A program made the translations under genes and the position numbers. A model generated the notes under the pieces. That model ran no database searches. It had not been told where the DNA came from and worked only from the letters and a program-made list of their open reading frames with translations. A DNA stretch of 64,000 nt from Candidatus Binatia bacterium (GTDB lineage Bacteria > Desulfobacterota > Binatia > UBA12015), in NCBI GenBank assembly GCA_029243485.1, contig JAQWRY010000088.1, positions 27,221 to 91,220 on the forward strand. The letters are read 5' to 3'. Shown here piece by piece: positions 9,943-55,057 of the stretch (position 1 is its first letter; each line of letters begins with the position of its first letter).

Positions 9943-11379
9943 ATGGCACAGACTGCGCAGATCCGTCGTATCGGTACCGTCGAAAACGAGGCCCAACGAA
10001 TCTTCAAGATTCAACGCGAGGCCTACCTCAAGAGCCCGTACCCGTCGCACGAGGAGCGGCTCGCGCGGCTGAGCAAAGTCGAGTCGATCCTCGTCGACAA
10101 TGCCGACGCGATTGCCGCTGCGATCAACGAGGACTTCGGGCATCGGAGCGAGCAGGAAACCAAGATGCTCGAGCTCTTCGGTTGTGTGGACGGTCTGCGC
10201 CAGACCAAGAAGAAGCTCCGCAAGTGGATGAAGCCTCAGAAGCGGAAGGTCTCGGTCCTGTTTGCAACGGGTAAGAACCAGCTCATTCCGCAGCCAAAGG
10301 GCGTCGTCGGCATCGTGTCTCCCTGGAACTACCCTCTGTTCCTGACCATCAGCCCGCTCACGGGCATCCTCGCCGCCGGCAATCGCGCGATGATCAAGAT
10401 GGCGACCAACTCTTCGACTCTGTGCCGCCTGCTGGCGGAGAAGTTCTCCGAGCAGTTCGACGAGTCGGAAGTTGCGATCCTACCCGGCGTGCGCGGATCG
10501 GACTTCTCGACGCTCCCGTACGACCACATCATCTTCACCGGCTCAGCCGACGCGGGACGCACCGTGATGCAGTCCGCGGCGGAGAACCTCACGCCGGTCA
10601 CGCTCGAACTTGGCGGAAAATCCCCGACCGTCCTTTGCGACGACTTCGACGTGAAAGAGGCGGCTTCGCGCATCCTCTACGCCAAGCTCGTGAACGCCGG
10701 GCAGACCTGCCTTGCTCCGGACTATCTCTTCGTTCCGGAGGCCAAGAGGGATGCGTTCGTGGACGCGGCGAAGGGGCTCGTCGCGCACCGCTATCCCGAC
10801 ACGAATGATCGCAGCTACACCTCCGTGATCGATGAGAAGTCCTATCGTCGGCTGCGGGAGACCCTCGACGACGCCGAAGCGAAGGGTGCCACACTGGTGC
10901 CGCTCGTCCCTGGTGCCGAGTTCAACGACTCGAACCGGAAGCTTCCGCCCCATCTCGTGCTCGACGTCACCGAAGACATGCGGATCATGCAGGAGGAGAT
11001 CTTCGGACCCCTCTTTCCGGTGAAGACCTACCAAACGCTCGACGAGGTGATCGAGTACGTGAACGAGCGGGACCGGCCCCTGGGCGCCTACTTCTTCACG
11101 AACGACAAGGCGGTCGAGCAGAAGCTCCTTTACAGCACGATCTCCGGTGGCGTGACCATCAACAACTGTGTTTTCCACATCGCTCAGCACGACCTGCCGT
11201 TTGGCGGCGTCGGCGCGAGCGGCATGGGGCACTACCACGGCCACGAGGGCTTCGTGGAGTTCAGTAAGATGCGTCCGGTCTTCACGAGTCCCAAGATCGA
11301 CGGGCTCTCGATGTTCTACCCGCCGTACACGAAGAAGCACTCGCGGCTGGTGAATCTCTTGTTGAAGTTCAAACGTTGA
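9943..11379 (+). CDS. aldehyde dehydrogenase (coniferyl-aldehyde DH-like family)
   Basis: Has ELGGKSP, NAGQTCLAPDY and EEIFGPL motifs. AGGAGGA RBS precedes the ATG at 9943. Confidence 0.85.
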   Translation: MAQTAQIRRIGTVENEAQRIFKIQREAYLKSPYPSHEERLARLSKVESILVDNADAIAAAINEDFGHRSEQETKMLELFGCVDGLRQTKKKLRKWMKPQKRKVSVLFATGKNQLIPQPKGVVGIVSPWNYPLFLTISPLTGILAAGNRAMIKMATNSSTLCRLLAEKFSEQFDESEVAILPGVRGSDFSTLPYDHIIFTGSADAGRTVMQSAAENLTPVTLELGGKSPTVLCDDFDVKEAASRILYAKLVNAGQTCLAPDYLFVPEAKRDAFVDAAKGLVAHRYPDTNDRSYTSVIDEKSYRRLRETLDDAEAKGATLVPLVPGAEFNDSNRKLPPHLVLDVTEDMRIMQEEIFGPLFPVKTYQTLDEVIEYVNERDRPLGAYFFTNDKAVEQKLLYSTISGGVTINNCVFHIAQHDLPFGGVGASGMGHYHGHEGFVEFSKMRPVFTSPKIDGLSMFYPPYTKKHSRLVNLLLKFKR

Positions 11380-11663
11380 CGGCCGCGGGAGGCGCTTCGG
11401 TGCTTCTCCGCTCTCTCTCCCTGACTCATTGGATTCTCCTTCTCTTTGGGCCGGGAGTGTCTCTTATTTCAAACCCTTAGCTGGTCCAACTTCTGCTGAA
11501 CCCGAACAAAGGCCGAAGCGGATGCTGAAGTCCGCGCGTCGCCCGGGAGCCCCAAGGGACTTCAATTCTGGATTGCGTCCGAGGCCGCTAGCAAGACAGT
11601 CCGCCGACGCCTACCCCGCCGGCGATCTGCATCGAGGATATCGATGCGCTTTGGACGCTCTGG

Positions 11664-12221
11664 GTGCTCGAGAACCCGGCGGTGCTTCCGCCGGCGTGCA
11701 GGACCCTGCATGCCGCGGTCGATGCCTCGGCCTCGGGTGGCGTGGTGTGCGTCTACGCGCGGGCGACCGAGAACGTCGTGATCAACAAGGGGCCCGATCT
11801 CGAGATCACGCAATGCACGGTCGCCGAGGCGGCCGCGCTGAACCTGGGTCTGCCCGTCGTCCAGATCCTGGGCGCCGGTCCGGTCCTCGTCATCGGCCTC
11901 GACGAGACTGGCGGCACGGCCGGCTGGCGTCTCGATGGCGATGGCTACGAGTTGCGCGGTGTTCGCTCCTACGACAACTCGGTCGATGGGATTCTCGTGA
12001 ACGGAAACGACAACGAGATTTCGGTGAATCGTGTCGGGCACAACGGCGCCTGTGGTGTCTGCGGCACCGCGTCCGGCACGCTCGTGCGGGACAACAAGAT
12101 GGATGACAGCGGTCTCTGCGAGCACGAGGTGCTCGGGGCCGGCACGACCGATGGCGGGGGTTCGAACCGCGCTAGCGGTGTGAAGTTCTTCGACATCGAA
12201 GCCGGCGGCTGTTTCGAGTAG
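11664..12221 (+). CDS. hypothetical protein with parallel beta-helix-like repeats (start uncertain, possibly a gene fragment)
   Basis: Repeats such as NSVDGILVNGNDNEISVNRVGHNG look like a right-handed beta-helix. Only a GTG start is available, no in-frame ATG exists, and there is no signal peptide. Confidence 0.35.
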   Translation: MLENPAVLPPACRTLHAAVDASASGGVVCVYARATENVVINKGPDLEITQCTVAEAAALNLGLPVVQILGAGPVLVIGLDETGGTAGWRLDGDGYELRGVRSYDNSVDGILVNGNDNEISVNRVGHNGACGVCGTASGTLVRDNKMDDSGLCEHEVLGAGTTDGGGSNRASGVKFFDIEAGGCFE

Positions 12222-29633: not shown

Positions 29634-31883
29634 CTAGCTAGGCGCCGGGATCGCGCCAACTCTTGTCGGCTGGTCGACCCAGATAGGGGAGGACCAGGCT
29701 CGTTCTTCGATGTCGCTCAGGCAATCGTCCTCGTAGTCGGTTTTCGCGTCCTCGCCGTGGCACGGGTCGAGCGCGATGCAGTTGCCGTCGCCGTCGTAGC
29801 TACACCGCAGGTTCTTCCCGTTCACGGCGGGGCTCGGTTCCTGGATGGCCCGGACATAGTAAATCGTGTCGCGGCCGGTGGCGACGAACTCTTGGTCGTC
29901 GAACTCGGCGACGCAGCCCGCGGCGCCGCCGTCGCAGGGGAGCGTTTGCCAAGGGTCCTCGATGAGACCTCCCACCGGTTCGTCGTCGTGGAGTTGCGGT
30001 CGCATGCGCACGACTTCGATGCGCGTGATCCGCTTCCGCTCGTCGGCCGGGTGATAGCACTCGTTGCGGCAGAGGTCGTGGAGCCTCTCTTCACTGAGAG
30101 CGGCCGTTACAAACTCGGGGCAGCCGGGGTTCTGCTCCAGGGCACCTACGGCCCGAACCCGGAACCGAGGCGTCTCCGAGAGGGTGACTTCCGACCCCAT
30201 CGGCAGCGCGCCGCCTTGTGCGCTCAGCAGATCGAACCACAGGAGGATTCGGTCTCCGCTCGTCCCGTAGACCTCGCGCTGCTTCAGGCCTTGCCAGATG
30301 GCATCACGACCGCGACCGGCGGAGTGTACCGCGACCAGGCCTCCGGTCGTGAAGAACGAGGACATCCGCTCGACGTCGCGCGTGGCGAAGGGAACTTCGG
30401 GTTGCTCGTCGAGCGCGACCGAGTACGGGACCGGCGGGTTCTGGTTGTTCAGGAGGTCGGGGGCATCGGCGCGGGGCCCCTTGCCCTCGGTCATCTCGCT
30501 GCGATCGACTTCCTTGTAGCCGGTCCCCGGTCGCGCCGTGTGATTGTCGCTCGATGCGATGAAGCCCATCCGCGTAGCGACTGGGACTTCGCCCTCGAAG
30601 TTCTTTCGCACGAGCATGTATTGCGCCGACATGCGCGGCCGGTAGTCGAAGGCAGGGAGGAAGCAGTCGCGGCACTGGCCGGCATCGAGCCAGTCCTCGA
30701 CAGCCGTCCCTGGCACTGTGCGGAAGCCGGTCTTGCCCCCGGCAACGTGGTTCGCGCGAGCGAGCGCGGCGCGTGTCTGACACTCGTCCTCGCTCTCGCC
30801 CGCCGCGAGGCAGCGATCCCGGATGATCTCGCCGGCCCGCCTGCAGTTGGGCAGGTACCCCGACGGTCCCGGCAGAGTCGGGGGACAGATCTCGTTTCCG
30901 TTTGCGTCGAGCTCCACGTCGAGGAAGTCGCGGTACTCTTCGGAGTTGCCGTGGCCGGAGTAGATCTCCACGAGCGTCTGTCGCTTCGGGTCATCGTTCG
31001 CGGGGCCGATCTGGGAGTCCCAGGTGGATCCGGGCGGTGACGTGTTCCCCCACGTCGTCCCGTGCGGGATGACGATCGACTCGACGCCCCATTCGTCGAG
31101 CTTCGCGAACAGCTCCCCCGGAGTGCGGGCGCTCTCCTTGCAAGAGTCGGGGAGCTCGCGGACCGGGACACCCGTGGGGCACGGCGGGACGGTCGACGTC
31201 TCCTCGAGAAAGCGCGTGAAGTCGAGGGTCCGCCGGTCGTGGATCAGGAGAGCCAGGCCGGCGCGGGCTATCGGAGGCATCGCGACGATGTCGCCGCCAT
31301 CGGGGTAGATGGAAGCGATCGGCCGGGTCGGGACGCGCGCTTCGTCGAGATCCTTCAGCAAGATGTTCTTGTGCCCGAAGTGATTCTTCGCGGTCGCCCC
31401 GTCCTGCGTCCATTCCCAACCGAGAAAGGCGGTGACGTCGGGGTCTTCGGGTGTGGTGACGGCGTTGCATTGGCGGATGCTGTCGACGGTCTCCCGCCAA
31501 TGCTCGGGGGTGAGCGACTCGGCGTGATCGTTGATGGACCAGAAATCGAGTGCCGAGCAGAAACGTGCGAAGTCGCAGGCGTCGGCCGGAGGATGCGCCC
31601 CTTCGCCGGACACGAGAGGCAGGCTCATCACGAAGGCATCGGACGAGAAGGTGGTGTGCACGTGGAGGTCGCCGAAGAGGATCTGCTTCTCGGCCTGGCC
31701 GAGGGCGGCCGCGGCCGCCTCTCTTTCTGCCGCACGTTGCGCGAGGGCGCCCGGGGGGAGCGCGACGGCTGTCACCTCTCCCGCAGGCTCGTGATTGCCG
31801 AAGGCACCTCGGCCGAGTGCGTAGAACCCGCCGGCGGCGAGAACCACGAGGACGATCAGGGCATAGACAAGGCGTCGCAGCAC
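29634..31883 (-). CDS. DUF3604-family protein (PHP-like metal-dependent phosphoesterase N-terminus), membrane-anchored/secreted
   Basis: 749 aa. GTG start gives a signal anchor MLRRLVYALIVLVVLAAGG. GDLHVHTTFSSDAF and later HGTTWGN metal motifs. Many Cys in the C-terminal half. Confidence 0.7.
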   Translation of the reverse strand: MLRRLVYALIVLVVLAAGGFYALGRGAFGNHEPAGEVTAVALPPGALAQRAAEREAAAAALGQAEKQILFGDLHVHTTFSSDAFVMSLPLVSGEGAHPPADACDFARFCSALDFWSINDHAESLTPEHWRETVDSIRQCNAVTTPEDPDVTAFLGWEWTQDGATAKNHFGHKNILLKDLDEARVPTRPIASIYPDGGDIVAMPPIARAGLALLIHDRRTLDFTRFLEETSTVPPCPTGVPVRELPDSCKESARTPGELFAKLDEWGVESIVIPHGTTWGNTSPPGSTWDSQIGPANDDPKRQTLVEIYSGHGNSEEYRDFLDVELDANGNEICPPTLPGPSGYLPNCRRAGEIIRDRCLAAGESEDECQTRAALARANHVAGGKTGFRTVPGTAVEDWLDAGQCRDCFLPAFDYRPRMSAQYMLVRKNFEGEVPVATRMGFIASSDNHTARPGTGYKEVDRSEMTEGKGPRADAPDLLNNQNPPVPYSVALDEQPEVPFATRDVERMSSFFTTGGLVAVHSAGRGRDAIWQGLKQREVYGTSGDRILLWFDLLSAQGGALPMGSEVTLSETPRFRVRAVGALEQNPGCPEFVTAALSEERLHDLCRNECYHPADERKRITRIEVVRMRPQLHDDEPVGGLIEDPWQTLPCDGGAAGCVAEFDDQEFVATGRDTIYYVRAIQEPSPAVNGKNLRCSYDGDGNCIALDPCHGEDAKTDYEDDCLSDIEERAWSSPIWVDQPTRVGAIPAPS

Positions 31884-31968: not shown

Positions 31969-33216
31969 ATGGCCGCGCACAACAATCCCGTTCTCGTTCC
32001 CTCATTCATCGGTACCGCCGCCCCCGGAGTTCACGTGTTGGGAGGGATGGGGAATGCCCTTTCGGTGGAGATGGCGGAAGGGGTCCTGCAACTCGACACC
32101 GGAAATGCACCGAAGAAAGCGAAGAAGGCGCTCGCACGGCTGCGGGAGCTGACGGACGCTCCGGTGTTCGCGATCCTCTATTCCCACGGCCATCTCGGGT
32201 ACAACGATGCGGTAGGCGTCTGGCTCGAGGACGCGGAAATGCGCGGTGATCCGCGACCTCGGATCATCGCCCACGAGAACCTGGTGACGCGGTGGACGCG
32301 CTACCGCGAGACCGAGGGCTTACAAAAGCACTTCGCCGAGCTGCAGCTCTGTCTCCCGATCGGCACCCTCGATGCTCATCGACTCCCCCTCGAGATGCCG
32401 AGCGAGACGTTCACGGACACGCTCGTCTTCGAAGACGGCGATCGGCGCGTCGAGGTCTTCTGGGCGCCCTCGGAGACAGACGACGCGGTTGCGCTGTGGC
32501 TGCCGAAGGAGAGGGTGCTCTACGGTGGCGCGGCCGTCACGCCGACCATCCCCAACATCGGCACGCCCCTGCGAACCCAACGGTATGCAATCCGTTGGGC
32601 AGAGACGCTGGAGCGCCTCGCCGCACTCGATCCGAAGTTGATGGTGATGGAGTTCGGCCCCTCCGTTGAAGGCGAGACGGACATCCAGAAGATGCTTCTC
32701 TCGATGGCCGAGGCCCTTCGGTGGATCCGCGGCCAGGTCGTCACGGGATTGAACGCGGGCAAAGGCGTCGAGCAGATCGTTGCGGAGATCGAGTATCCCG
32801 ACGAGCTCTTCTCGTTGCCGTGGATGTCGCCGACCTACGGTCATCCGGACTTCATCACGCGTGACATCTTCCGTTCCGAGAACGGTTGGTGGGACCGCAA
32901 CCCGACCCATCTGCACCCGGCGACACCCGAGGCCGCCGGTGCGGCCGTTCTCTCGGCGATCACGGATCGGGAAGCGGTGCTCACGAAGGCACGGGAGTTG
33001 TTCCGGACCGGCGACGGCGCGACCGCTCTGCACGTGGTTGACGTACTAGCGCTCGCGCCCGGCGACGACCCGGATGTCGTGCGAGCGCGCGCCCTGAAGG
33101 CCGAGATTTGCCGGTCCCTCGGTGAGAACGCGCCGAGTTTTGTCTCGCAGAGCCTCTACGGTTCGTGCGCCGACATCATCGAGCATGGGGCGAAGCGGCC
33201 TACCGGCGTGAGGTAG
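31969..33216 (+). CDS. MBL-fold protein related to alkyl/aryl-sulfatases (MBL plus dimerisation domain, no SCP2 tail)
   Basis: 415 aa. The metal motif is degenerate (YSHGHLGYND rather than the canonical HxHxDH). Confidence 0.5.
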   Translation: MAAHNNPVLVPSFIGTAAPGVHVLGGMGNALSVEMAEGVLQLDTGNAPKKAKKALARLRELTDAPVFAILYSHGHLGYNDAVGVWLEDAEMRGDPRPRIIAHENLVTRWTRYRETEGLQKHFAELQLCLPIGTLDAHRLPLEMPSETFTDTLVFEDGDRRVEVFWAPSETDDAVALWLPKERVLYGGAAVTPTIPNIGTPLRTQRYAIRWAETLERLAALDPKLMVMEFGPSVEGETDIQKMLLSMAEALRWIRGQVVTGLNAGKGVEQIVAEIEYPDELFSLPWMSPTYGHPDFITRDIFRSENGWWDRNPTHLHPATPEAAGAAVLSAITDREAVLTKARELFRTGDGATALHVVDVLALAPGDDPDVVRARALKAEICRSLGENAPSFVSQSLYGSCADIIEHGAKRPTGVR

Positions 33217-33220
33217 CCGC

Positions 33221-34291
33221 CTACGAGAGCTGGAGCCGCTGCAGGGCCTCGTCGGCCTCGCTCATGATTCGCGAGATGAGTTCGGCGCAGGTCGGCCGGT
33301 CGTCGATCACCCCGGCGACTGAACCGCTCGGCAGATAGCCGCCGACGGGGTCTCCGTCCTGCATGGCGCGTTTGGCGAGCATCGGGGCATTCGCGGCGAG
33401 GAGCATCTGAGATCGCGTGAGCTTTTCGTTCTGGCGCATGGCGAGTCCGGACTTGAGGAGATCGAAGAGCGAGGCGCCCGAGGTCTTTCGGAACTCGAGC
33501 GCGTTCCGCGCCGCGAATATCAATCGGCTCAAACCGCTCTTGGTCTCCAGTTCCCGGACGAGCTCGTTCACGATCACACGCTGGGGAAGGCCGTCGATCT
33601 CCGAGGTGACGATCACGTCGGTGAGGCTCGCGCCGATGTAGCGGTCCGTCGTGACTTCGGGGACGGGGCTCTCTGCGGTCATGAGGAAGCGCGTCCCCAT
33701 CGCGATGCCGGCGGCGCCCCGTGCGACGGCCGCGACGAGTCCACGACCATCCTTGAAGCCGCCTGCCGCGATGACCGGGATCTTCACGGCATCCGAGCAG
33801 GCGGAAACCTGAAGGGACGTCGCGATCACCCCGGTGTGCCCGCCGCCCTCACCGCCCTGAACGATCACGGCATCGGCGCCGAGCTTCTCAGCTTTCTGCA
33901 CGTGCCGGGGCGCACCGCATGTGGGGATGCATAGGACGCCTCCGTTCTTCAGCTTGTTGATTAGATCGGCACTGGGCGCGCGGTTGTATCCGGCGGCACG
34001 GACCCCGTGCGTGAGGATCATCTGCGCGATCTCCTCGGCGCCCGGAGCGTCCATGAGGAAGTTCACACCGAAGGGACGGTCGGTCAGTTCCTTCGTTCGG
34101 ACGATGGCTTTCTCGACCTCGGGCAGCGGGAGTGCCGCTGCGGCGAGGAACCCGAATGCACCGGCGTTGCAGGCACCAGCCACGAGCTCGGGCGTCGCGA
34201 CCCAGCCCATGCCGGTCTGGATGATGGGGGTCGGCATGCCGAGCAACTCGGTGAGGCGGGTCTTCAGCGGGTGTCCGTCCGGCAGGTTCAT
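33221..34291 (-). CDS. nitronate monooxygenase / 2-nitropropane dioxygenase family (FMN, FabK-like)
   Basis: …LLGMPTPIIQTGMGWVATPELVAGACNAGAFGFLAAA… and GGEGGGHTG. Start taken at MNLPDG (AAGGGG RBS); MSPHDD at 34333 is the alternative. Confidence 0.8.
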   Translation of the reverse strand: MNLPDGHPLKTRLTELLGMPTPIIQTGMGWVATPELVAGACNAGAFGFLAAAALPLPEVEKAIVRTKELTDRPFGVNFLMDAPGAEEIAQMILTHGVRAAGYNRAPSADLINKLKNGGVLCIPTCGAPRHVQKAEKLGADAVIVQGGEGGGHTGVIATSLQVSACSDAVKIPVIAAGGFKDGRGLVAAVARGAAGIAMGTRFLMTAESPVPEVTTDRYIGASLTDVIVTSEIDGLPQRVIVNELVRELETKSGLSRLIFAARNALEFRKTSGASLFDLLKSGLAMRQNEKLTRSQMLLAANAPMLAKRAMQDGDPVGGYLPSGSVAGVIDDRPTCAELISRIMSEADEALQRLQLS

Positions 34292-34397
34292 CCACCCCTT
34301 AGTAACAGCCAGAACGTCATCATGGGGTGACATTCCCCCGGTTCTGTCGCATTCTCCCGGTCGGATCCTGGACCCGTGAGGCCGGGCGGAGGCGCGC

Positions 34398-37388
34398 ATG
34401 AAGAATTCGCTCTGTAAATTGGGAGTTTTAGCGACGGTTCTGGCCCTGGCAGTGGGACTGCCCGCGCCGGGTGCGGCCGCGGACAAGAAATCGGCGAGTC
34501 CGACCGAGGCCGATGCGGGCACGGGGAGGCCTGGGTCGAGCAAGCGCGTGCGCACGCCGAAGCCCGCTGCGGTGAACGTCACCAAGAAGTCGTTCCAGAG
34601 CCTGGAGAAGGAAGGTCAACTCACGCTCTCGAGCCCGAAGCTCAGCGCCGAAGGCGCGCGCGAGAACCGGAGCCTCGACGAGGCCATGGGTGCGATTCTG
34701 GCCGAGCAGCTCGGGAAGACCAAGCTCGTAGATCGGTACACCGAGGTTCCGGCCGCAGACGGGAAGAGATTCGCGCGGACCGAGGCCGGCAACTACGTCA
34801 CGCGTCTCGGGACGCGCGACGGTCGCGTGGAGCAGGTCGTACTTCTGGGGCCGAGCTTTGCCACACGGGAGCTGTCGGAGACGCTCGCCGAGCTGGGGCG
34901 GCCGATGAACGCGGAGTCCAACTACGCCGCCCTCTACGAAGGCTTCCAGGGTGCGCTCGCGGCGGACCCGGCCGGACTCGGGGTCCTGCTGAAGGGAATG
35001 CCGGCTCCGGGAAAGCTCGGCAAGAAGGATCCGAAGAAGCTGCTGCGAGACCTCGCAAAACGTTGGACCAAGGCTCCCCCGACGAAGATCCCGCCGACCA
35101 AGGGCAAGCAGGACTGCGGGCTGAGCTGCGGGAAGCTCGCATCGCCGCGTACGCTCGTCGCCGGGAGTGACGGAGGTGCGTGTTACGAGAAGTCGAAGAC
35201 CGGCCTATGGGCAACCGCGGATTGGCAGATGAAGGGATCCTCGACCTGCGTGAAGGACCAAGGGGAGACGCGAGGCGCCAGCGTCGCGTTCGCGATCAAC
35301 GCAGCGGTGGAGACTTCCATCCGGCGGGAGCACGATCTTTGCGCGGATCTCTCGGAGCAGCATCTCCACTATCAGCAGAAGAACCATTGGTTCCCGATCC
35401 CGCCGAACTTCGGTGATGATCTGAATTCGCCGAGTTCCGTGTTCGGGATGATGGTGGGCGACTACGAGTTTCGCGGCGAGGCGCAGTGGAAATACAACCT
35501 CTCCCCGCAGCGAACCGAGGTTACGTCGAAGACCAAGGCCTTGGGCATTCTGCAGGGGTACCAGGGCTCTTGTGCGGGCTACGCCGACAAGCCGTGCTCC
35601 GACACGAATCACCAGGGCCAGTACGTCTGTGCGAAGGGAACTCGCTCTTGTGGCTATAGCGCGCAGATTCCGCCTGCGAAGGGCGAAATCAAGGTGCTCT
35701 CGTACAACACGTTCTTCGACGTAACGAACAGCAATCAGACCATCGATGTCGCACCGATGTTCCTTGGGATAGGCCTGCCGGTCGTCGCGTCATTCCAGGT
35801 CACGCAGAGCTTCCTCGACGCGGCGGACGACGGCTGGGTGAAGTCCGTGCCGAAGCCGAACAAGTCGAAGAAGGGAGCGCTCGATCCGCTTCGCGGGTGG
35901 CACGTCGCAATGATCGAGGGGTACGTGCGCAATCAGGACCTTGCCAAGAACACGCCGCCGGCGGCAGGTGGTGGTTACTTCATCGTTAAGAACTCCTGGG
36001 GCCCGTGCGTCGGGGACGGGGGCTACTGGTACGTCCCGAAGAGATGGATGGCGGACCACGCGCTCTCGATGACGGCGCTCACGGGGGTCCAGGCTTACGG
36101 GAAGAGCAGCGTGATCAGCGGTGCATTCAACTCCGCGCTGCAGCCGCCCGAGCCGCCCAGCCTGTTGGTTAGCCCGGCCTACATGCCGGTTTATCCGCGG
36201 TACTCGGCGCTTCGGTGGAGCGACACGAACCCGACTACGACCAGCTACAGCGTTTGTCTTCGTGAGGCCGTCGAATCGAGCCAGGGCAATGTAGACTGCA
36301 CGCTCTTTCCGGTACCGCCTGCAGTCGCCGCGCAGAAGAAGTTCATGATCGACTCCTTCGCGTACGAGGAGCCTTACCGCGGCGAGTCCTATTACTGGAC
36401 CGTTCTCGCCTGCAACGCGGCGGGCTGCCAGTACTCCGACATGAACCGAGTGATTCGGTTCACGCTCCCCAACCCGCGCCTGCAATCGCCTGTTCCTGGC
36501 TTCACCGCGACGACCCGAAGTCCGAACTTCCAGTGGTACCGCCTGACGAAGGGCTTCGACGGGCAGGGTAACCCGATCTACGACGAAGAAGTCGAGTCGT
36601 ACCGCATCACGGTGGGGCCGACGCCGCTTCCCGCGCCGGAACCGCCGTGGGAAGACGAGATGTTCAAGCACTACTCCTCGCCGGGCATTCCGGCAGGAAG
36701 CGCCGGAGGAGTGCAGACCCTGCGCTTCCCGGTGCCGGTAACCGATGAGATTCCAGCGAACCTCGGCAGTACCGTCCACTGGTACGTGGAGGCCTGCAAG
36801 ACCATTGACGGGACGCTAGAGTGTAGTCGGTTCCCGCACTTCCAGAACCGGCCGATGCAGCACGAAGGGGTGTTCTACTTCGGCACCCTGAATCTGCCGG
36901 GCGGCGAGGACCCGATGACGTTTGCCCAGGCCTGCGATGTCATCGGTGACGTGGTCGATTCGCCACGTTGTCGGAACTGCCACGCGTCCATCACCGAGGT
37001 CACGCGGTACGACACGATGCAGAACCACGGACTGTCGCCGGGTGAGACGTGTTCGAACTGTCACAACCCGAACGGAGGCAACACGCCGTGGCCCGGCCAG
37101 GGCGAGCCCGTATGGCACCAGCCCACCGACGCGGGCATGCAGTGGACGGGGCTCTCCACGGGCGAGGTCATCAGTCGAATGGCCGACGAGAACACGAATG
37201 GGGACCGCTCGCTGAACCAGATCGCGAGCCACGTCGTGATGGACCACCTGGTTCTGTGGGCCTTCGACCCCGCGGGCGGAAACGGGAACACGGGTGACCG
37301 CACCCCGGCTCCCTATGCGGACTCCTATTCCCAGGCGTTCCTCGTGTGGGCGGCGAACTGGGTCGCAAACGGCTCGAGCTGTGATTGA
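34398..37388 (+). CDS. large secreted papain-like (C1) peptidase-homologue with Ser at the nucleophile position and a C-terminal double-CxxCH region
   Basis: Signal peptide and GGAGG RBS. ADWQMKGSSTCVKDQGETRGASVAFAINAAVE aligns with VDWRxKG…QGxCGSCWAFS with Cys25 replaced by Ser. GWHVAMIEGY (His) and VKNSWG (Asn) are conserved. CRNCH at ~36968 and CSNCH at ~37049. Confidence 0.8.
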   Translation: MKNSLCKLGVLATVLALAVGLPAPGAAADKKSASPTEADAGTGRPGSSKRVRTPKPAAVNVTKKSFQSLEKEGQLTLSSPKLSAEGARENRSLDEAMGAILAEQLGKTKLVDRYTEVPAADGKRFARTEAGNYVTRLGTRDGRVEQVVLLGPSFATRELSETLAELGRPMNAESNYAALYEGFQGALAADPAGLGVLLKGMPAPGKLGKKDPKKLLRDLAKRWTKAPPTKIPPTKGKQDCGLSCGKLASPRTLVAGSDGGACYEKSKTGLWATADWQMKGSSTCVKDQGETRGASVAFAINAAVETSIRREHDLCADLSEQHLHYQQKNHWFPIPPNFGDDLNSPSSVFGMMVGDYEFRGEAQWKYNLSPQRTEVTSKTKALGILQGYQGSCAGYADKPCSDTNHQGQYVCAKGTRSCGYSAQIPPAKGEIKVLSYNTFFDVTNSNQTIDVAPMFLGIGLPVVASFQVTQSFLDAADDGWVKSVPKPNKSKKGALDPLRGWHVAMIEGYVRNQDLAKNTPPAAGGGYFIVKNSWGPCVGDGGYWYVPKRWMADHALSMTALTGVQAYGKSSVISGAFNSALQPPEPPSLLVSPAYMPVYPRYSALRWSDTNPTTTSYSVCLREAVESSQGNVDCTLFPVPPAVAAQKKFMIDSFAYEEPYRGESYYWTVLACNAAGCQYSDMNRVIRFTLPNPRLQSPVPGFTATTRSPNFQWYRLTKGFDGQGNPIYDEEVESYRITVGPTPLPAPEPPWEDEMFKHYSSPGIPAGSAGGVQTLRFPVPVTDEIPANLGSTVHWYVEACKTIDGTLECSRFPHFQNRPMQHEGVFYFGTLNLPGGEDPMTFAQACDVIGDVVDSPRCRNCHASITEVTRYDTMQNHGLSPGETCSNCHNPNGGNTPWPGQGEPVWHQPTDAGMQWTGLSTGEVISRMADENTNGDRSLNQIASHVVMDHLVLWAFDPAGGNGNTGDRTPAPYADSYSQAFLVWAANWVANGSSCD

Positions 37389-48272: not shown

Positions 48273-48650
48273 TGACTAGCTCCGCATCGGTGAGGTCGCC
48301 AAGCGGGCCGGGGCCGCGTCGTCCGCGATACGCTACTACGAGATCGAAGGTCTGATTTCGCGACCGGCGCTACGCGGTGGGAGACGGATCTACGACGAGG
48401 GTGTCGTCTCTCGCCTTGCGCTGATTGATCTCGCAAAAGCGCGGGGTTCACGGTGGCGGAAGTGAAGCTTCTGCGCGGCGACTTCAGGGGCCGGGCCTCG
48501 ACCGGTGAGCGCTCGCGGACGAGAAGGTCGGCGAACTCGATCGCCCCATCGAAGAGGCGGAGCAGATGAAGCGTGTTCTGAAGGTCATGATGAGTTGCGA
48601 ATGCCCGCCGTTCGAGGACTGCTCCCGGGCGATCGGGGTGTGTGATTGAC
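48273..48650 (+). pseudogene. MerR-family transcriptional regulator, start lost and at least 2 frameshifts
   Basis: HTH LRIGEVAKRAGAASSAIRYYEIEGLISRPALRGGRRIYDEGVVSRLALIDLAKARG stops after …RWRK*. The expected …GFTVAEVKLL… requires +1 nt at ~48447. A C-terminal coiled coil and Cys cluster (…ELDRPIEEAEQMKRVLKVMMSCECPPFEDC…) lie in a third frame. A TAG sits immediately 5' of the HTH. Confidence 0.45.
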
Positions 48651-48695
48651 CGGCTTTTGCGTTCCGGGCACGGTCGTGGGAACACGATCCCGGCC

Positions 48696-51125
48696 ATGCA
48701 TCCCATTCGATTGATCCCCATCGCCTTGATTCTCCTGACACTTCTCTCGCCGGGCTCCGCAGCCGGACAGGTAGAGGCTCCGTCCGATCTCCAAAAGTCG
48801 CTCGACACGGGTGTCGAGACGGTGGGGGAGGAGGACGAGGTCGATGCCGGCGCGGCGCAGGCCGAGGCGGCGGAGCGCGGTGACCCGACACCTGGGCTGG
48901 ACCGGGGGGCGCGGCAGCGAATCGAGGAGATCGTGGTGAGCGCACGGAAGCGTGCAGAGCTGCTCGAGGATACTCCGGTGGCCGTCACCGTCCTCGGCGA
49001 GACCGCGCTGCGCCAGTCCGGGATCACGCGGATCGATCAGATTCAGGATCTAGTGCCGAACATGACGTTCGCCCAGGGGCTCGCTGGGCAGGCACCGCAG
49101 ATTCGCATTCGCGGGGTCGGGACCACGACCGTCGAGGTGGCGTTCGATCCCGGCGTCGGGGTGTACGTGGACGGAGTTTTCCTTGCCCGCGCGGTGGGGC
49201 AGCTGCTCGACACCGTCGATATCGAGCAGGTGGAAGTGTTGCGAGGTCCGCAGGGGACCCTCTTCGGGAAGAACACCGTCGGCGGAGCGGTGAGTGTGAC
49301 GACCGTGAAGCCGAAGCCCGAGCTCGAGGGCTTCGTGTTCGTGCGCCCGGGCAACTTCGGGTCCGTCATGACGCGCGCGATGGTGAATCTGCCGGTCTAC
49401 GAAGACAAGGTGATGACACGCTTCGCACTCTCGTCGAGGAACAGCGCCGGTTACGTCTACAATCAGTATCGTGACGAGTACATGTCCGGGCTCAGCTCGA
49501 TCGACACGCTGGGCTCTATCCGTCTCGCGCTGATCGATGATCTCACGATCGACGTGAGCGGCCAGTACTCGACCGCGCACACCAACGCACGGGGTGGGGA
49601 GTGTGTCTTCTCGGCCCCGGGTGCTCTCGAGGGCCTCGTTCCCGGCTTCAAGCCGGGGTGCGAGGCAGTGTCGGGACCCTTCCTCACGAACGAAGCCGTC
49701 GCGCAGATCAACAGTGTAACGAGCAGTGGCACCTGGGGTGTCATCGAGTACGCACCGGGCGGCTTCGCTTTTCTCGACGACCTGCTTGTGAAATCGATCT
49801 CGTCGTGGCGCCAGCAGGCGTCGGCACAGCGCTTCGATCTGGACGGCAGTTCCTACCCGGCGATTCAGCTCTCGAATGCCGGCGGAGGAGCGTTGTTCGA
49901 TGGCGAGCCGACCGAGCAAGAGCAGGTCCAGCAGGAACTGCAGTTCAACGCGTCTGCTTGGGACGGCCGAATCAACTTTATCACGGGCCTCTTTGCTTAC
50001 TGGGAGAACGCCACCGCGCCGAACACCGTGCGGGCCGAGACCGCGACGTTCGTGACCGCGACGGCCAATCGGATCACGACCGACAATTTCACGTGGGCGC
50101 TGTACGGGCAGGGGACGGCGGACGTCACGGACTGGCTCTCGCTCACGGCCGGCCTCCGGTACACCGCGGACCGAAAATCGTTCACGCAGGAGGCCTATGA
50201 CCCTCGCGCGCCCGACGTGCCGCCGGAGATGGGCGCGGATTCCAACACGTTCACGTCGTGGACGCCCGCGGCGACGCTGGCGCTGCTGACCCCGCAGGAG
50301 TGGCTCGACGGAACTCCGGTCGATCACCTGATGGGCTACTTCACGTACTCGCGGGGCTTCAAGGGCGGAGGGTTCAACGCCGTTCTGCAATCTCAGGTCG
50401 GTTCGTTGAGCCCGGTACCGTTCGACCCGGAGACGCTCGACAACTTCGAACTCGGTGTGAAGACGACCGCACTGGAGCAGCGTCTCACGCTCAACTTGGC
50501 GGTCTTCCGCGGGAAGTATGACGACATTCAGGTCTCGCAGTTCGTGACCTCGCTGGATGATCAGGGAATGGTCGTTTCGCAGCGCGTGACGCAGAACGCG
50601 GCGAAGGCGACGATCCAGGGGTTCGAGGCGGAGGCTTGGGTGCAGCCGATCGACGGACTCGTCTTCACGGGGTCGTTCGGCTACCTCGACGCGCGCTACG
50701 ACGAGTACTCCGGCTCGGAGTCGCAGATGACGTCCGCGCCTATCGATCGGGCCGGCGAGACCTTCGATCAGTCGCCGCAGCTTCAGTCGTTCGTGTCCGC
50801 CCAGTATTCCTTCGGGATCGACATCGCCGCGGACTCGCTGCTCAACGGATGGCTCACGCCACGGCTCGAGTGGGCGTACCGCGATCGGTTCCACACGGTG
50901 GCGCCGGAGGTCCGGCAGGGCTTTCAGGCGGGATACAACCTCCTGAACGCGCGGCTCTCGTACGACTTCCTAGACGACCGCGCGCAGGTCGCCGTGTGGG
51001 CGAAGAACTTGCTCGACGAGGCGTACTTCAACCAGACGTTCGCCTACGTGACGACGTTTGGGGGCGTCTCGCGGTTCTATGAGCCGCCTCTGACGTTCGG
51101 CGGCGAGCTCAGCTACGTTTTCTAG
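48696..51125 (+). CDS. TonB-dependent outer-membrane receptor
   Basis: Signal peptide, TonB box and plug (IEEIVVSARKRAELLEDTPVAVTVL), a long barrel, and a C-terminal …GGELSYVF. Confidence 0.9.
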   Translation: MHPIRLIPIALILLTLLSPGSAAGQVEAPSDLQKSLDTGVETVGEEDEVDAGAAQAEAAERGDPTPGLDRGARQRIEEIVVSARKRAELLEDTPVAVTVLGETALRQSGITRIDQIQDLVPNMTFAQGLAGQAPQIRIRGVGTTTVEVAFDPGVGVYVDGVFLARAVGQLLDTVDIEQVEVLRGPQGTLFGKNTVGGAVSVTTVKPKPELEGFVFVRPGNFGSVMTRAMVNLPVYEDKVMTRFALSSRNSAGYVYNQYRDEYMSGLSSIDTLGSIRLALIDDLTIDVSGQYSTAHTNARGGECVFSAPGALEGLVPGFKPGCEAVSGPFLTNEAVAQINSVTSSGTWGVIEYAPGGFAFLDDLLVKSISSWRQQASAQRFDLDGSSYPAIQLSNAGGGALFDGEPTEQEQVQQELQFNASAWDGRINFITGLFAYWENATAPNTVRAETATFVTATANRITTDNFTWALYGQGTADVTDWLSLTAGLRYTADRKSFTQEAYDPRAPDVPPEMGADSNTFTSWTPAATLALLTPQEWLDGTPVDHLMGYFTYSRGFKGGGFNAVLQSQVGSLSPVPFDPETLDNFELGVKTTALEQRLTLNLAVFRGKYDDIQVSQFVTSLDDQGMVVSQRVTQNAAKATIQGFEAEAWVQPIDGLVFTGSFGYLDARYDEYSGSESQMTSAPIDRAGETFDQSPQLQSFVSAQYSFGIDIAADSLLNGWLTPRLEWAYRDRFHTVAPEVRQGFQAGYNLLNARLSYDFLDDRAQVAVWAKNLLDEAYFNQTFAYVTTFGGVSRFYEPPLTFGGELSYVF

Positions 51126-52099: not shown

Positions 52100-55057
52100 C
52101 TACGGACCCTTGGACTTGAACTTCGACCCGTCGTTCACGAGCGACAGCGGGAAGGTGCTCTGCCAGCAGTCCTGCGTCACGCCGTCGTCGATGACGAGCT
52201 GCGTCGTCACCGTGGTCGTGAGCGGAAGACTGGGGATCGTGAGGAAGCTGCCCTGGCCCTTCGCAAGGACCTTCGTCTTTCCGGCGTCGCCTTCCTTGAA
52301 CTTCATGAGCGTCACGCCGTCTGAGCTCTGGCCGGTCTTGTTCTTGTATTTGAAGCCCTTGCCGTTGAGGCTCTTCCAGCAGTCCTTGCCGCTGCACTGG
52401 CCGGCGCTCCCGATGGTTGCCTCATAGATGGGCTGGCTGGCCCCCGAGTCGTCGTAGAAGCAGACGCTCAGGTTGCGTCCCGTCTGGGTCGGGTCGAGGA
52501 AGTCGGCCGTCGCAGTAGCGTCGCCGCGGTTCATCTTCCAGACGAACTTGTCTTTGCTCCCGTCGATGATGGTGAGGATCGAGCCGAACGGCTGGCTCAG
52601 TCGGCAGCCGGTGGCGGGCGTCTCCTGACAGAGGATCTCGTCGGCGCACGAGAAGAGGTGGACGTCGTCGACGTACCAGCCGATTTGCCCGTTGCAGCCG
52701 TCGAGGCCCATCTCGAAGCGGAGCTGAATCGTGTCGCCATCGTCAGCGAAGTCGGACAGGTCTACCTGGGACTGTCCCCAGCTGCCGGTGAGGCTGCCGC
52801 CGTCGGCGCCGGTGAAGGCCTCTTGGCCCGCGAGCGGGTTGTCGTTGCCCTGGCCGGAGGAGTTGAGCGTGTCGTTGTACGGATTGAAGTCATACGCGGA
52901 GGCCGGAACGAGGGTGTACCCGCCGCCGTTCACGCTGATCTTCACGTTGGCACCGTCCCATCCCTCCTCGGTCGACACCCAATGGTCGAACGCGAGTCGC
53001 ACCTTCTTGACTCCGGAGGGAATGACGATCTCCGGGCTTTGGAGGAACAAGACGCCGGCTTCGGTGTCCGCTTGGCAGTTGCCCAGGGCCGGGTCGTCCG
53101 CCACGAAGGCGGCGGAGCCCGCGACGCTATCCGGCAGGCTTCCGACGACAGCCCAATCGAGCGTGTCGAAGGTACCGAGATTCGCGACGCTGCGGGTGCC
53201 CACGGTCCAGGAGCCGAGCCCGCTCTCCCAGTCCTGGAGGTGAATCGTGTCGACGGTGCTACCGCCACAGAGCGCGGGCGGGCTCGCGTCGAGCATTGGC
53301 GTGAAGCTGCACTGCGTCGGGGCGGTGCGGAGCTCGACCGCGGCGATCGCGTCGGAGACCTCGGTGCAGTCGGCCGCGCTGATCGTGGAGCCGAGCGTGC
53401 CCCCCCACGTACCCGACCCTGTCGTGAGAGGGGTGTACAGGGCGGCGCCGAGGAGGTCGGTGCAGCTAGCCTCCAGCGCATTCGCGTGATCTTCGAAGTC
53501 GCTCGCCGCTACCTGATAGACGGTCGCGGCGCGCCAGTAGATGTGGGCGGCCTTCTCGAGGCCGATTCCGGTGATAGTCTGTCCGTTGTAGGTGCCACCG
53601 TCGACGAGAAGAGCGAAGGCGTGATTCGGAACGCCGGAGTTGGTGTGGACGCCGCCGTTGTCCGCACTGCTGCAGACGTAGCTCCCGGAGGAGACCTTGT
53701 CGGGGTCGCCGTAGCAGAGAGGCTGCCACATATCGCGAATGGCGCCGCCGAATCCGGGGTCGTCCTCGCCCGACAGCCAGCGATACGTCGCGTCGGTCGA
53801 TGGAGAGCCGTTGCCGAACGTGGAGCAGGCGGAGCCGTCGGAGGCGCGAAGGCCGAGGGGCGAGTCCGTGCCGCGACCGTTCAGGAAGTCGACGACCTCG
53901 CCGAAGATGTCCGAGTAGGACTCATTCAGCGCGCCAGCCTGCCAAGCGTAGATCAAGTTGTGCGTGTACTCGGTGTAGGCGTGCATCCATTCGTGCGCGA
54001 CCGTGTCGTCCCCGGTCACGCCGTCGCAGTAGTTCGTGGAGACGCCGTTCCAGGTCGCGTTCGGACAGCTGATCCCGGGATCGTTGTTGACCGTGTACAT
54101 GATCGCGTCGAGCCCATCGTAGGAGAGGTACGCGCCGTTCGTCATGCTGCCGAACAGATTGTAGGACTCCTTTGCGCCGTCGTTCGCACCATTCCACGCA
54201 GTGACCTGCGCCGCGGTACCACTGGCCCAGCCGGCGGTGATCGGATCGGGGTGGCCGAGTCCTTCGTCCCAGATGATGTTGCCCAAACTGGTTTCGCCGA
54301 CGCGGCGATGAAGCGTTTCGTGAACGCCGGAGATGCGCTCGAGGATGCCGCCCGATGCGGCGTCGACGAAGACCCACTCGTGGACCGTCAGATCGGCGTT
54401 GCCGATCTCGACTTCCCACGCGAGGTGCGCCGTCCCGGGTATGCCGCGAAGGAGTCCCGTGTCGTAGATGACCAGGCGGCGACCGATCGCTTCGGCCGCG
54501 CTCTTGGCGGTAGCAATGGCGTCCGCTTCTGGTCCGGGGAGCGCAGGAGTAGTGGAGAGGGGGCCTCGCACCGCGACGACCGAGCCGCCGATGGACGTGA
54601 GGTCGAGGCCGGGGCCGAAGTGGGCACGGAGCTCGCCGCCGAACACTTCGATGCCATCGACGACCTGGCGGTAGCGCACGCGGCGGGTGCCGAGCGCGTC
54701 GCTCGATTCCCCGATGACCTCGAGCTGATCGCCGGGCTCCGAGAGACCGAACAGATCAGCGTGGTCTCGAAGGAACTCGTTGGCCTTCGCCCGAGCCGAG
54801 CCCGCCCGGCTGCCGGGCAGAAGATCGCGGCCGCTGTCGGCGCGCACGAAGCCCGCCACTGAGGTGCCCCGGCGCGCTCGCACCCGGGCGCCGGGGCCGG
54901 CGTCTCGTTCGAGGCGCTCGACGGCACCCGGATCGACCTCGCGAGCCTGCCGGTCGGGGCCCGCGGCCGCCGCTGGGAGGGCCAGGGCTGTGGCGAGGGC
55001 CACCCAAAGGCCGAGGAAGAAAGGTCGGCCGGTCCAGGGGCGTCCAGGCGAGCTCAT
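52100..55057 (-). CDS. secreted M4 (thermolysin/vibriolysin-like) zinc metallopeptidase with C-terminal accessory domains
   Basis: Signal peptide, N-terminal propeptide, VAHEWMHAYTE (HExxH) and NESYSDIFGE. About 350 extra C-terminal residues. Confidence 0.9.
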   Translation of the reverse strand: MSSPGRPWTGRPFFLGLWVALATALALPAAAAGPDRQAREVDPGAVERLERDAGPGARVRARRGTSVAGFVRADSGRDLLPGSRAGSARAKANEFLRDHADLFGLSEPGDQLEVIGESSDALGTRRVRYRQVVDGIEVFGGELRAHFGPGLDLTSIGGSVVAVRGPLSTTPALPGPEADAIATAKSAAEAIGRRLVIYDTGLLRGIPGTAHLAWEVEIGNADLTVHEWVFVDAASGGILERISGVHETLHRRVGETSLGNIIWDEGLGHPDPITAGWASGTAAQVTAWNGANDGAKESYNLFGSMTNGAYLSYDGLDAIMYTVNNDPGISCPNATWNGVSTNYCDGVTGDDTVAHEWMHAYTEYTHNLIYAWQAGALNESYSDIFGEVVDFLNGRGTDSPLGLRASDGSACSTFGNGSPSTDATYRWLSGEDDPGFGGAIRDMWQPLCYGDPDKVSSGSYVCSSADNGGVHTNSGVPNHAFALLVDGGTYNGQTITGIGLEKAAHIYWRAATVYQVAASDFEDHANALEASCTDLLGAALYTPLTTGSGTWGGTLGSTISAADCTEVSDAIAAVELRTAPTQCSFTPMLDASPPALCGGSTVDTIHLQDWESGLGSWTVGTRSVANLGTFDTLDWAVVGSLPDSVAGSAAFVADDPALGNCQADTEAGVLFLQSPEIVIPSGVKKVRLAFDHWVSTEEGWDGANVKISVNGGGYTLVPASAYDFNPYNDTLNSSGQGNDNPLAGQEAFTGADGGSLTGSWGQSQVDLSDFADDGDTIQLRFEMGLDGCNGQIGWYVDDVHLFSCADEILCQETPATGCRLSQPFGSILTIIDGSKDKFVWKMNRGDATATADFLDPTQTGRNLSVCFYDDSGASQPIYEATIGSAGQCSGKDCWKSLNGKGFKYKNKTGQSSDGVTLMKFKEGDAGKTKVLAKGQGSFLTIPSLPLTTTVTTQLVIDDGVTQDCWQSTFPLSLVNDGSKFKSKGP

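Follow-up and report, generated by a model that had tools for sequence, protein, structure and literature searches.

We report that one gene in a 64,000-nucleotide stretch of DNA from a Candidatus Binatia bacterium (contig JAQWRY010000088.1; the whole 64-kb stretch is called the window below) encodes a 996-aa protein, predicted to be secreted, in which a papain-like (C1) domain without the catalytic Cys is fused to a C-terminal domain carrying two CxxCH motifs. Alignments make us confident that this protein has no catalytic nucleophile and is a pseudo-peptidase, and its last 157 aa very probably form a dihaem cytochrome module. On balance, we favour the reading that the whole is an exported dihaem electron-transfer protein that would use its dead protease cleft as a docking site. 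Both kinds of domain are known; their combination and the drifting nucleophile column are new, and the fusion is rare. A literature search returned nothing on the fusion or on the dihaem family itself. The product has the same sequence as P8R42_28715, a hypothetical protein in the NCBI protein database from a Candidatus Binatia metagenome-assembled genome (MAG), and its open reading frame (ORF) lies where an original prediction, made from the letters of the window, had placed it (Table 1).

By predicted fold and homology, the protein is a member of peptidase family C1. Pfam Peptidase_C1 (PF00112) matches residues 273–548 (E = 4.6e-5; 24 bits against a cut-off of 20.7), and a profile of the family reaches cathepsin F, falcipain-2 and cathepsin L in the PDB at E ~ 1e-9 (~3e-9 for cathepsin F and falcipain-2); PDB alignments from the single sequence and from the profile together reach cathepsins F, L and S and falcipain-2. 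These alignments place GxxVAF on GSCWAF, GWHVA on nHAVM with the catalytic His and KNSWG on KNSWG with the catalytic Asn, and Ser295 therefore stands in the Cys25 column. The residues equivalent to Gln19, His159 and Asn175 are present as Q288, H502 and N532, as the original prediction had read from the QG, GWHVAM and NSWG motifs; lacking Cys25, the protein does not qualify as an active C1 peptidase. The earlier description of a secreted papain-like protein without a Cys nucleophile is thus borne out by the PF00112 match, by Ser295 and by a Sec-type signal recognized by inspection. The motifs given for the Ser codon and the two CxxCH sites were correct, and their coordinates were one base low (35279–35281 for the Ser codon). 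Homology to cathepsin F, cathepsin L and falcipain-2 (MEROPS C1A) extends over both lobes, with NSWG and GxxxAF also kept. Unlike these peptidases, the target has (i) a one-residue insertion in the Gln19-to-Cys25 loop, (ii) no Cys22–Cys63 disulfide, with Arg at position 22, (iii) a family-specific N-domain of ~180 aa instead of an I29 propeptide (no Inhibitor_I29 match at E ≤ 1, and no PDB relative of the N-domain) and (iv) ~80 extra residues inside the domain and a C-terminal extension of ~430 aa.

We traced the nucleophile column through increasingly wide sets of relatives. A word-indexed search returned 8 relatives, which were aligned with the query as an original set of nine; in this set the Cys25 column holds Ser in the query, Gly in four ~1000-aa forms (58–65% identical to the query), Ala, Ala and Ser in ~560-aa forms and Cys in the most distant member (36%). 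An exhaustive hidden Markov model (HMM) search with a profile of the N-domain and C1 domain gave 4517 representatives at E ≤ 1e-3 and 358 at E ≤ 1e-30, and the best 148 representatives were aligned with the original nine to give 157 members. The C1 subfamily so delineated is a large, unnamed family of apparently secreted proteins. Its nucleophile column contains Cys in 140 of the 157 members, Ser in 6, Gly in 5 and Ala in 3, and the full Gln/Cys/His/Asn tetrad occurs in 131. A scan of GTDB species genomes added two members of the query clade, both in one MAG, 'Deltaproteobacteria bacterium OFTM293': a sixth long form with Gly (L015, contig JAJCZO010000273.1) and a short paralogue with Gln and 42% identity (L016, contig JAJCZO010000137.1). 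Each has the His, the Asn and a one-residue insertion between the oxyanion Gln and the nucleophile column (QGxTRG against QGxRG), and this insertion is confined to the query clade. The clade thereby comprises 10 members with S, G, G, G, G, G, A, A, S and Q in the column and never Cys, which answers the comparison of Cys and Ser among relatives that the original prediction had called for. The five other long forms, L015 included, are 58–68% identical to the query over their full length and all have Gly. His502 and Gln288 are invariant in the clade, and Asn532 is lost in one member (P0008). More distant Binatia paralogues retain RG[ST]C and the His. These alignments show descent of the C1 domain from a large family of seemingly intact Cys/His/Asn peptidases with loss of the nucleophile in the query clade, and a column now filled by G, A, S and Q, apparently interchangeable and non-nucleophilic.

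No true Cys nucleophile was found elsewhere in the domain. C284 is the only nearby invariant Cys in the clade, and we considered and rejected it as a relocated nucleophile: in 110 of the 157 family members this position is also Cys alongside a normal nucleophile, and since it is equally kept beside a canonical Cys25 we judge it structural. Elsewhere in the C1 subfamily, P0166, P0168 and P0265 are independent dead variants in which Cys is replaced by Ser and His by Gln, and in P0199 (Ala), P0216 (Ser) and P0293 (Gly) the Cys alone is gone. The subfamily has therefore lost its nucleophile repeatedly.

The original prediction had taken the Cys-to-Ser replacement to be of the SERA type, and this interpretation did not hold. 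Nucleophile-substituted C1 homologues include Plasmodium SERA5 (Ser), sponge silicatein (Ser) and TINAG/TINAGL1, and Ser as a nucleophile has been proposed for silicatein and is debated for SERA proteins. The target shares with SERA5, silicatein and TINAG the papain fold, the replaced catalytic Cys and the kept His and Asn, and the residue of the query is Ser. To our knowledge, families of the SERA, silicatein and TINAG types keep a fixed replacement residue across orthologues, whereas the column of the target drifts among G, A, S and Q and the target is bacterial and cytochrome-fused. The codons agree with this drift: the query reads GCC-AGC (Ala-Ser), two long forms (L001, L002) ACC-GGC (Thr-Gly) and a short form (L003) ACG-GCG (Thr-Ala). 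AGC is one transition away from the GGC of the nearest relatives, and Ser295 is therefore most simply a recent, unselected change from Gly.

Compared pairwise, the long forms are on average 74% identical in the C1 domain, 63% in the N-domain and 62% in the haem domain, and the two middle modules reach 47% and 57%. The C1 domain is thus the most conserved region of the protein despite the loss of the nucleophile, which suggests a pseudoenzyme kept for a non-nucleophilic role, most simply the binding of a ligand or partner in the cleft.

The two motifs of the C-terminal domain, CRNCH and CSNCH, are 27 residues apart and are the only CxxCH in a credible reading frame of the window. The window's one other CxxCH (CEACH, ~49427) lies in an antisense frame, 49050–50894 (−), over a TonB receptor gene, and this ORF is probably spurious. 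A profile of the last ~157 aa, built from five long forms, retrieved 27 free-standing proteins of ~200 aa and, in a second round, at least 1454. The fused-domain profile matches the free-standing proteins at E = 3e-16 to 1e-9, free-standing members find their way back onto the window by tblastn at E = 3e-20, and identity is 28–39% over the whole 157-aa domain. Both CxxCH motifs are invariant across 98 homologues and are therefore not a product of chance. In domain numbering, to which 839 is added for protein numbering, the invariant residues of this alignment are R18, C19, N21, C22, H23, H38, C46, C49, H50, P60, W67, G96, H106, P119, R129, P133 and G153. Beyond the two CxxCH motifs there are exactly two invariant His, H877 and H945, the count needed for two bis-His haems, and these may be regarded as candidate distal ligands. 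The target is thereby a member of the dihaem family by full-length homology and by its invariant residues, having the PRCxNCH, H, CxxCH, H, W, G, P, R and P of the free-standing proteins.

Neither the free-standing family nor the fused domain reaches a Pfam or NCBIfam cut-off, and no fold match was found in the PDB; most of the weak sequence matches in Pfam, NCBIfam and the PDB are to c-type cytochromes and cover the haem motifs. The segment-by-segment profile search suggested by the original prediction consequently succeeded for Peptidase_C1 and stayed below cut-off for curated cytochrome models. An AlphaFold2 (AF2) model from the 98-sequence alignment (predicted local distance difference test score, pLDDT, 87; predicted template modelling score, pTM, 0.83) is helical, with each CxxCH in a short helix; the region is predicted to be alpha-helical and not a disulfide-rich beta-sandwich. 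Invariance and predicted helical surroundings together uphold the assignment of CRNCH and CSNCH as putative c-type haem sites. In two free-standing members (P0012, P0025) a mid-domain Cys and the C-terminal Cys are missing together, a covariation consistent with a disulfide. The fused forms differ in that another residue stands in place of the mid-domain Cys, and their first helix has gained a Cys, C846, which presumably pairs with C995; one Cys of the probable disulfide would thus have moved from a mid-domain helix to the first helix. The target also has a shorter loop from His877 to the second CxxCH.

The free-standing proteins are named 'Isoquinoline 1-oxidoreductase subunit' by NCBI and UniRef and 'mono/diheme cytochrome c family protein' by JGI, and they begin with signal peptides or lipoprotein-like N-termini. 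All six free-standing homologues examined adjoin genes for IorA-like [2Fe-2S] (Fer2/Fer2_2) and IorB-like molybdopterin (MoCoBD) proteins, often with overlapping stop and start codons, and two of the six clusters also contain XdhC or molybdenum-cofactor biosynthesis genes. IorAB-like periplasmic dehydrogenases are accompanied by an operon-encoded cytochrome c that is the proposed electron acceptor (PMC6365646). Because of this precedent and the adjacency in six of six clusters, the free-standing dihaem family is best read, from its context, as the electron-accepting partner of IorAB-type molybdenum hydroxylases. The likeness to the deoxyribose dehydrogenase cluster of P. simiae in PMC6365646 is one of concept, a c-type cytochrome proposed to take electrons from an IorAB-like enzyme, and is independent of any comparison of that cytochrome with the dihaem family; it is described as membrane-anchored, and the target has no catalytic Mo subunit.

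The dihaem fusion is known in six sequences (the query, P0002–P0005 and L015), which come from marine and other metagenomes and whose genes appear to be monocistronic. The original prediction had called the haem motifs an odd partner for a peptidase domain, and indeed none of the 148 other representatives of the C1 subfamily has a CxxCH; the longer ones carry Ig-like (Big_7) repeats and beta-helix regions instead. The free-standing dihaem proteins are single-domain and stand beside IorA/IorB-type genes, whereas in the target the domain forms the end of a 996-aa chain, and no such genes lie in its neighbourhood.

Taken together, the layout of the protein would comprise a signal peptide, a linker, the N-domain, the papain-fold domain, two spacer modules and the dihaem cytochrome c domain. 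After export by Sec, two haems would be attached covalently in the periplasm, and the Sec-type signal, as recognized by inspection, suits cytochrome c maturation. The dihaem domain would then carry electrons in a periplasmic or surface electron-transfer protein, and the cleft of the dead C1 domain is probably retained to bind or dock a peptide or protein partner without catalysis. Docking of this partner may position the tethered cytochrome, with the two middle modules acting as spacers. The retention of the cleft as a docking site is argued for by the C1 domain being the most conserved part of the protein and by the kept Gln, His and Asn.

Several observations weigh against this docking reading. 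The short forms (~560 aa) of the dead-peptidase clade have no cytochrome, and the peptidase-like part must therefore be able to function without haem. The window contains no other cytochrome or redox partner, and tblastn detects neither an IorA/IorB-like gene nor a second dihaem copy in it; no IorA/IorB-like gene was called near the long forms L001, L002, L012 and L013, and no neighbour is common to all the long-form loci compared (window, L001, L002, L012 and L013). A redox role therefore lacks a contextual anchor. Motifs and genomic neighbourhoods are what lead us to propose haem attachment, axial ligation and electron transfer, and the retained His502, Gln288 and Asn532 could reflect residual or altered catalysis rather than binding alone.

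Other explanations differ in the task that they assign to either domain. The dead peptidase might regulate active paralogous peptidases or their substrates, or act as a decoy for them, with the haem domain as a redox or gas sensor or as a stabilising module, and we regard this as unlikely. Active-looking paralogues (RG[ST]C and His) do occur in Binatia MAGs, the dead clade includes haem-less short forms, and one MAG combines the long form L015 with the second dead paralogue L016. The dihaem family, however, is otherwise tied to redox enzymes in all six contexts, the window encodes no active paralogue, and the pattern of invariant residues agrees with six-coordinate bis-His haems, a state typical of electron carriers and not of ligand sensors. 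Regulatory bacterial pseudoproteases are documented in C. difficile, where, according to PMC7200643, subtilisin-like CspA and CspC keep a dead protease fold for binding or regulation; they differ from the target in fold and organism and are not known to have a cytochrome fusion, and the likeness is one of analogy only. An active serine-type hydrolase with Ser295 as nucleophile beside His502 and Asn532 appears very improbable. Ser occupies exactly the Cys25 column with Gln, His and Asn kept, and the best single-sequence PDB match is a cathepsin L/silicatein chimera (2vhs) with the motif GAS.AF in common, but only 2 of the 10 clade members have Ser, the five other long forms have Gly and other members Ala or Gln, the Ser codon looks recent and is unconserved, and the clade-wide insertion between Gln19 and position 25 would alter the oxyanion loop.

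A papain fold with a new, non-proteolytic catalysis through His502, Gln288 and Asn532, redox-coupled to the dihaem domain as a self-contained oxidoreductase, could account for the strong conservation of the C1 domain despite nucleophile loss and for the invariance of His502. The dihaem module of the parent family would always be the acceptor of a catalytic subunit, and here the fused domain is the sole 'catalytic' neighbour. Against this, Pfam and NCBIfam reveal no redox cofactor-binding motif in the C1 domain or N-domain, the haem domain is missing entirely from the short forms, and Asn532 is lost in P0008; we know of no precedent for a papain fold turned into a redox-coupled catalytic head and hold such catalysis to be decidedly improbable. 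A structural domain in which the CxxCH motifs bind no haem but make disulfides or coordinate a metal would agree with the failure of curated cytochrome models to reach their cut-offs. We find this scarcely credible, given that four His, the pair in the CxxCH motifs and precisely two others, never vary in 98 sequences, that the proteins of the family have N-terminal export signals and partner with Fe-S/Mo dehydrogenases, that the motifs sit in helical turns of a domain modelled as helical, that a separate covarying Cys pair already explains a disulfide, and that JGI annotates some members as mono/dihaem cytochromes. A bolder extension of the docking reading, to which we assign a small chance, is that the protein represents an unrecognised kind of exported redox protein, in which a papain fold lacking the nucleophile would form the head of a cytochrome, binding a substrate or partner or even acting as a catalyst, and that the dihaem module would be a structurally new cytochrome c family and the missing physiological acceptor of many IorAB-type hydroxylases.

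Table 1 Features of the target gene and its product, with positions in the window
Feature	Position	Strand	Basis
Target gene, 996 codons and TGA stop, ATG start	34398..37388	+	ORF and translation check
Predicted Sec-type signal peptide, aa 1–28, cleavage between AAA and DKK	34398..34481	+	By inspection
Low-complexity K/S/T/P/G linker, aa 29–57	34482..34568	+	Length differs among homologues; mean identity 31%
Family-specific N-terminal domain, aa 58–235	34569..35102	+	Conserved across wider C1 subfamily
Cys-containing linker, aa 236–272 (C240, C244, C262)	35103..35213	+	Alignment
Papain-like (C1) domain, aa 273–571, large insertion relative to papain	35214..36110	+	Pfam, PDB profile alignment
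Gln288, oxyanion Gln (Gln19 equivalent)	35259..35261	+	Alignment
Ser295, codon AGC, Cys25 nucleophile column	35280..35282	+	Alignment
His502, equivalent to papain His159, clade-invariant	35901..35903	+	Alignment
Asn532 (Asn175 equivalent)	35991..35993	+	Alignment
Middle module 1, aa 572–689, ending in motif YYWTVLACNAAGC	36111..36464	+	Alignment; no Pfam/PDB match
Middle module 2, aa 690–839, ending in motif VHWYVEACKTIDGTLEC	36465..36914	+	Alignment; no Pfam/PDB match
Predicted dihaem c-type cytochrome domain, aa 840–996	36915..37385	+	Homology to free-standing 'isoquinoline 1-oxidoreductase subunit' proteins
Putative first haem-attachment motif C858-R-N-C861-H862, inside invariant PRCxNCH	36969..36983	+	Alignment
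His877 (H38 in domain numbering), invariant, candidate distal haem ligand	37026..37028	+	Alignment
Putative second haem-attachment motif C885-S-N-C888-H889	37050..37064	+	Alignment
His945 (H106 in domain numbering), invariant, candidate distal haem ligand	37230..37232	+	Alignment
G8 homopolymer, immediately 3′ of stop codon	37389..37396	+	Sole homopolymer of at least 8 within the 64-kb window

The remaining segments of the protein are less readily assigned. The predicted signal consists of a K-rich n-region (MKNSLCK) followed by a hydrophobic core and the cleavage site, and all homologues aligned have a comparable hydrophobic N-terminus followed by A-A/G-A and then D. Many matches in the wider C1 subfamily span positions 1–509 of the combined N-domain and C1 profile; the N-domain has no Pfam match and no PDB profile match, and it may be a prodomain or lid. 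The middle region (aa 572–839, ~270 aa) likewise matches no Pfam family and no PDB profile. It contains two weakly similar modules, each ending in W-x-V-x-A-C...C, with marginal internal repeat similarity (E = 0.02–0.12). Identity with the Big_7 Ig domain of the longer relatives was rejected (hhalign probability 0.2%), and our guess is that the modules are beta-sandwich spacers.

The target gene has a G+C content of 64%, against 65% for the window, and appears to be monocistronic, with a divergent nitronate monooxygenase (NMO) gene upstream and a short-chain dehydrogenase/reductase (SDR) gene downstream. The mechanically called NMO ORF, 33221–34585 (−), runs into the 5′ end of the target gene; translated instead from the in-frame ATG at 34291, the product would have ~356 aa, close to the 364 and 377 aa of orthologues. 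With this start, a divergent intergenic region of ~106 bp (34292–34397) separates the two genes. No sigma-70-like promoter match was found in this region, and promoter and terminator scans on both flanks of the target gene gave nothing exceeding shuffled expectation. The homopolymer behind the stop codon, which the original prediction had counted as nine G, consists of eight and is probably incidental: it is missing after the stop in two orthologous loci, no terminator-like hairpin lies 3′ of it, and no role is evident. We rejected it as a phase-variation or slippage tract, since it is outside the ORF, has 8 G and is unconserved.

The window shares the synteny of NMO, CoA-transferase and DUF4136 genes with L001 and the short-form locus L003, and in each of these three loci NMO is the gene immediately upstream of the target; the arrangement is not shared by L002, L012 and L013. 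We considered operon context as evidence of function and rejected it: neither a redox nor a peptidase partner recurs among the window, L001, L002, L003, L012 and L013. At L001 (the P0002 locus), a Rieske [2Fe-2S] gene at 11126–11983 (+) lies 63 bp past the orthologue on the same strand and is present neither in the window nor at the other long-form loci. Upstream of the target, the window encodes a DUF3604 protein, 29634–31883 (−), and an alkyl-sulfatase-like metallo-beta-lactamase, 31969–33216 (+); a DUF3604 gene also occurs near the L013 orthologue. Further along, a TonB-dependent receptor with Plug and beta-barrel domains is encoded at 48642–51125 (+), and a 985-aa ORF at 52100–55057 (−) encodes a thermolysin-type M4 peptidase (Peptidase_M4_C) with an FTP propeptide motif and a weak InhA-like MAM domain. 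This M4 ORF is the second large secreted-protease-like gene of the window and belongs to a recognisable catalytic family.

The finding touches no long-standing open question, and the function is one that we infer. The protein is a clear bacterial papain-family pseudoenzyme, in which the nucleophile column drifts freely and the rest of the domain is strongly constrained, and as such it is a useful case for how dead proteases get reused. The fusion may also provide an experimental handle, as the ligand of the dead cleft would presumably be the electron-exchange partner of the cytochrome. Beyond the target itself, the analysis points to a large, uncurated dihaem cytochrome family that counts at least 1454 clusters and lacks any relative of solved structure, which we consider its most useful by-product. 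The genes of this family consistently accompany those of IorA/IorB-type molybdenum hydroxylases, for which it may be the natural electron acceptor.

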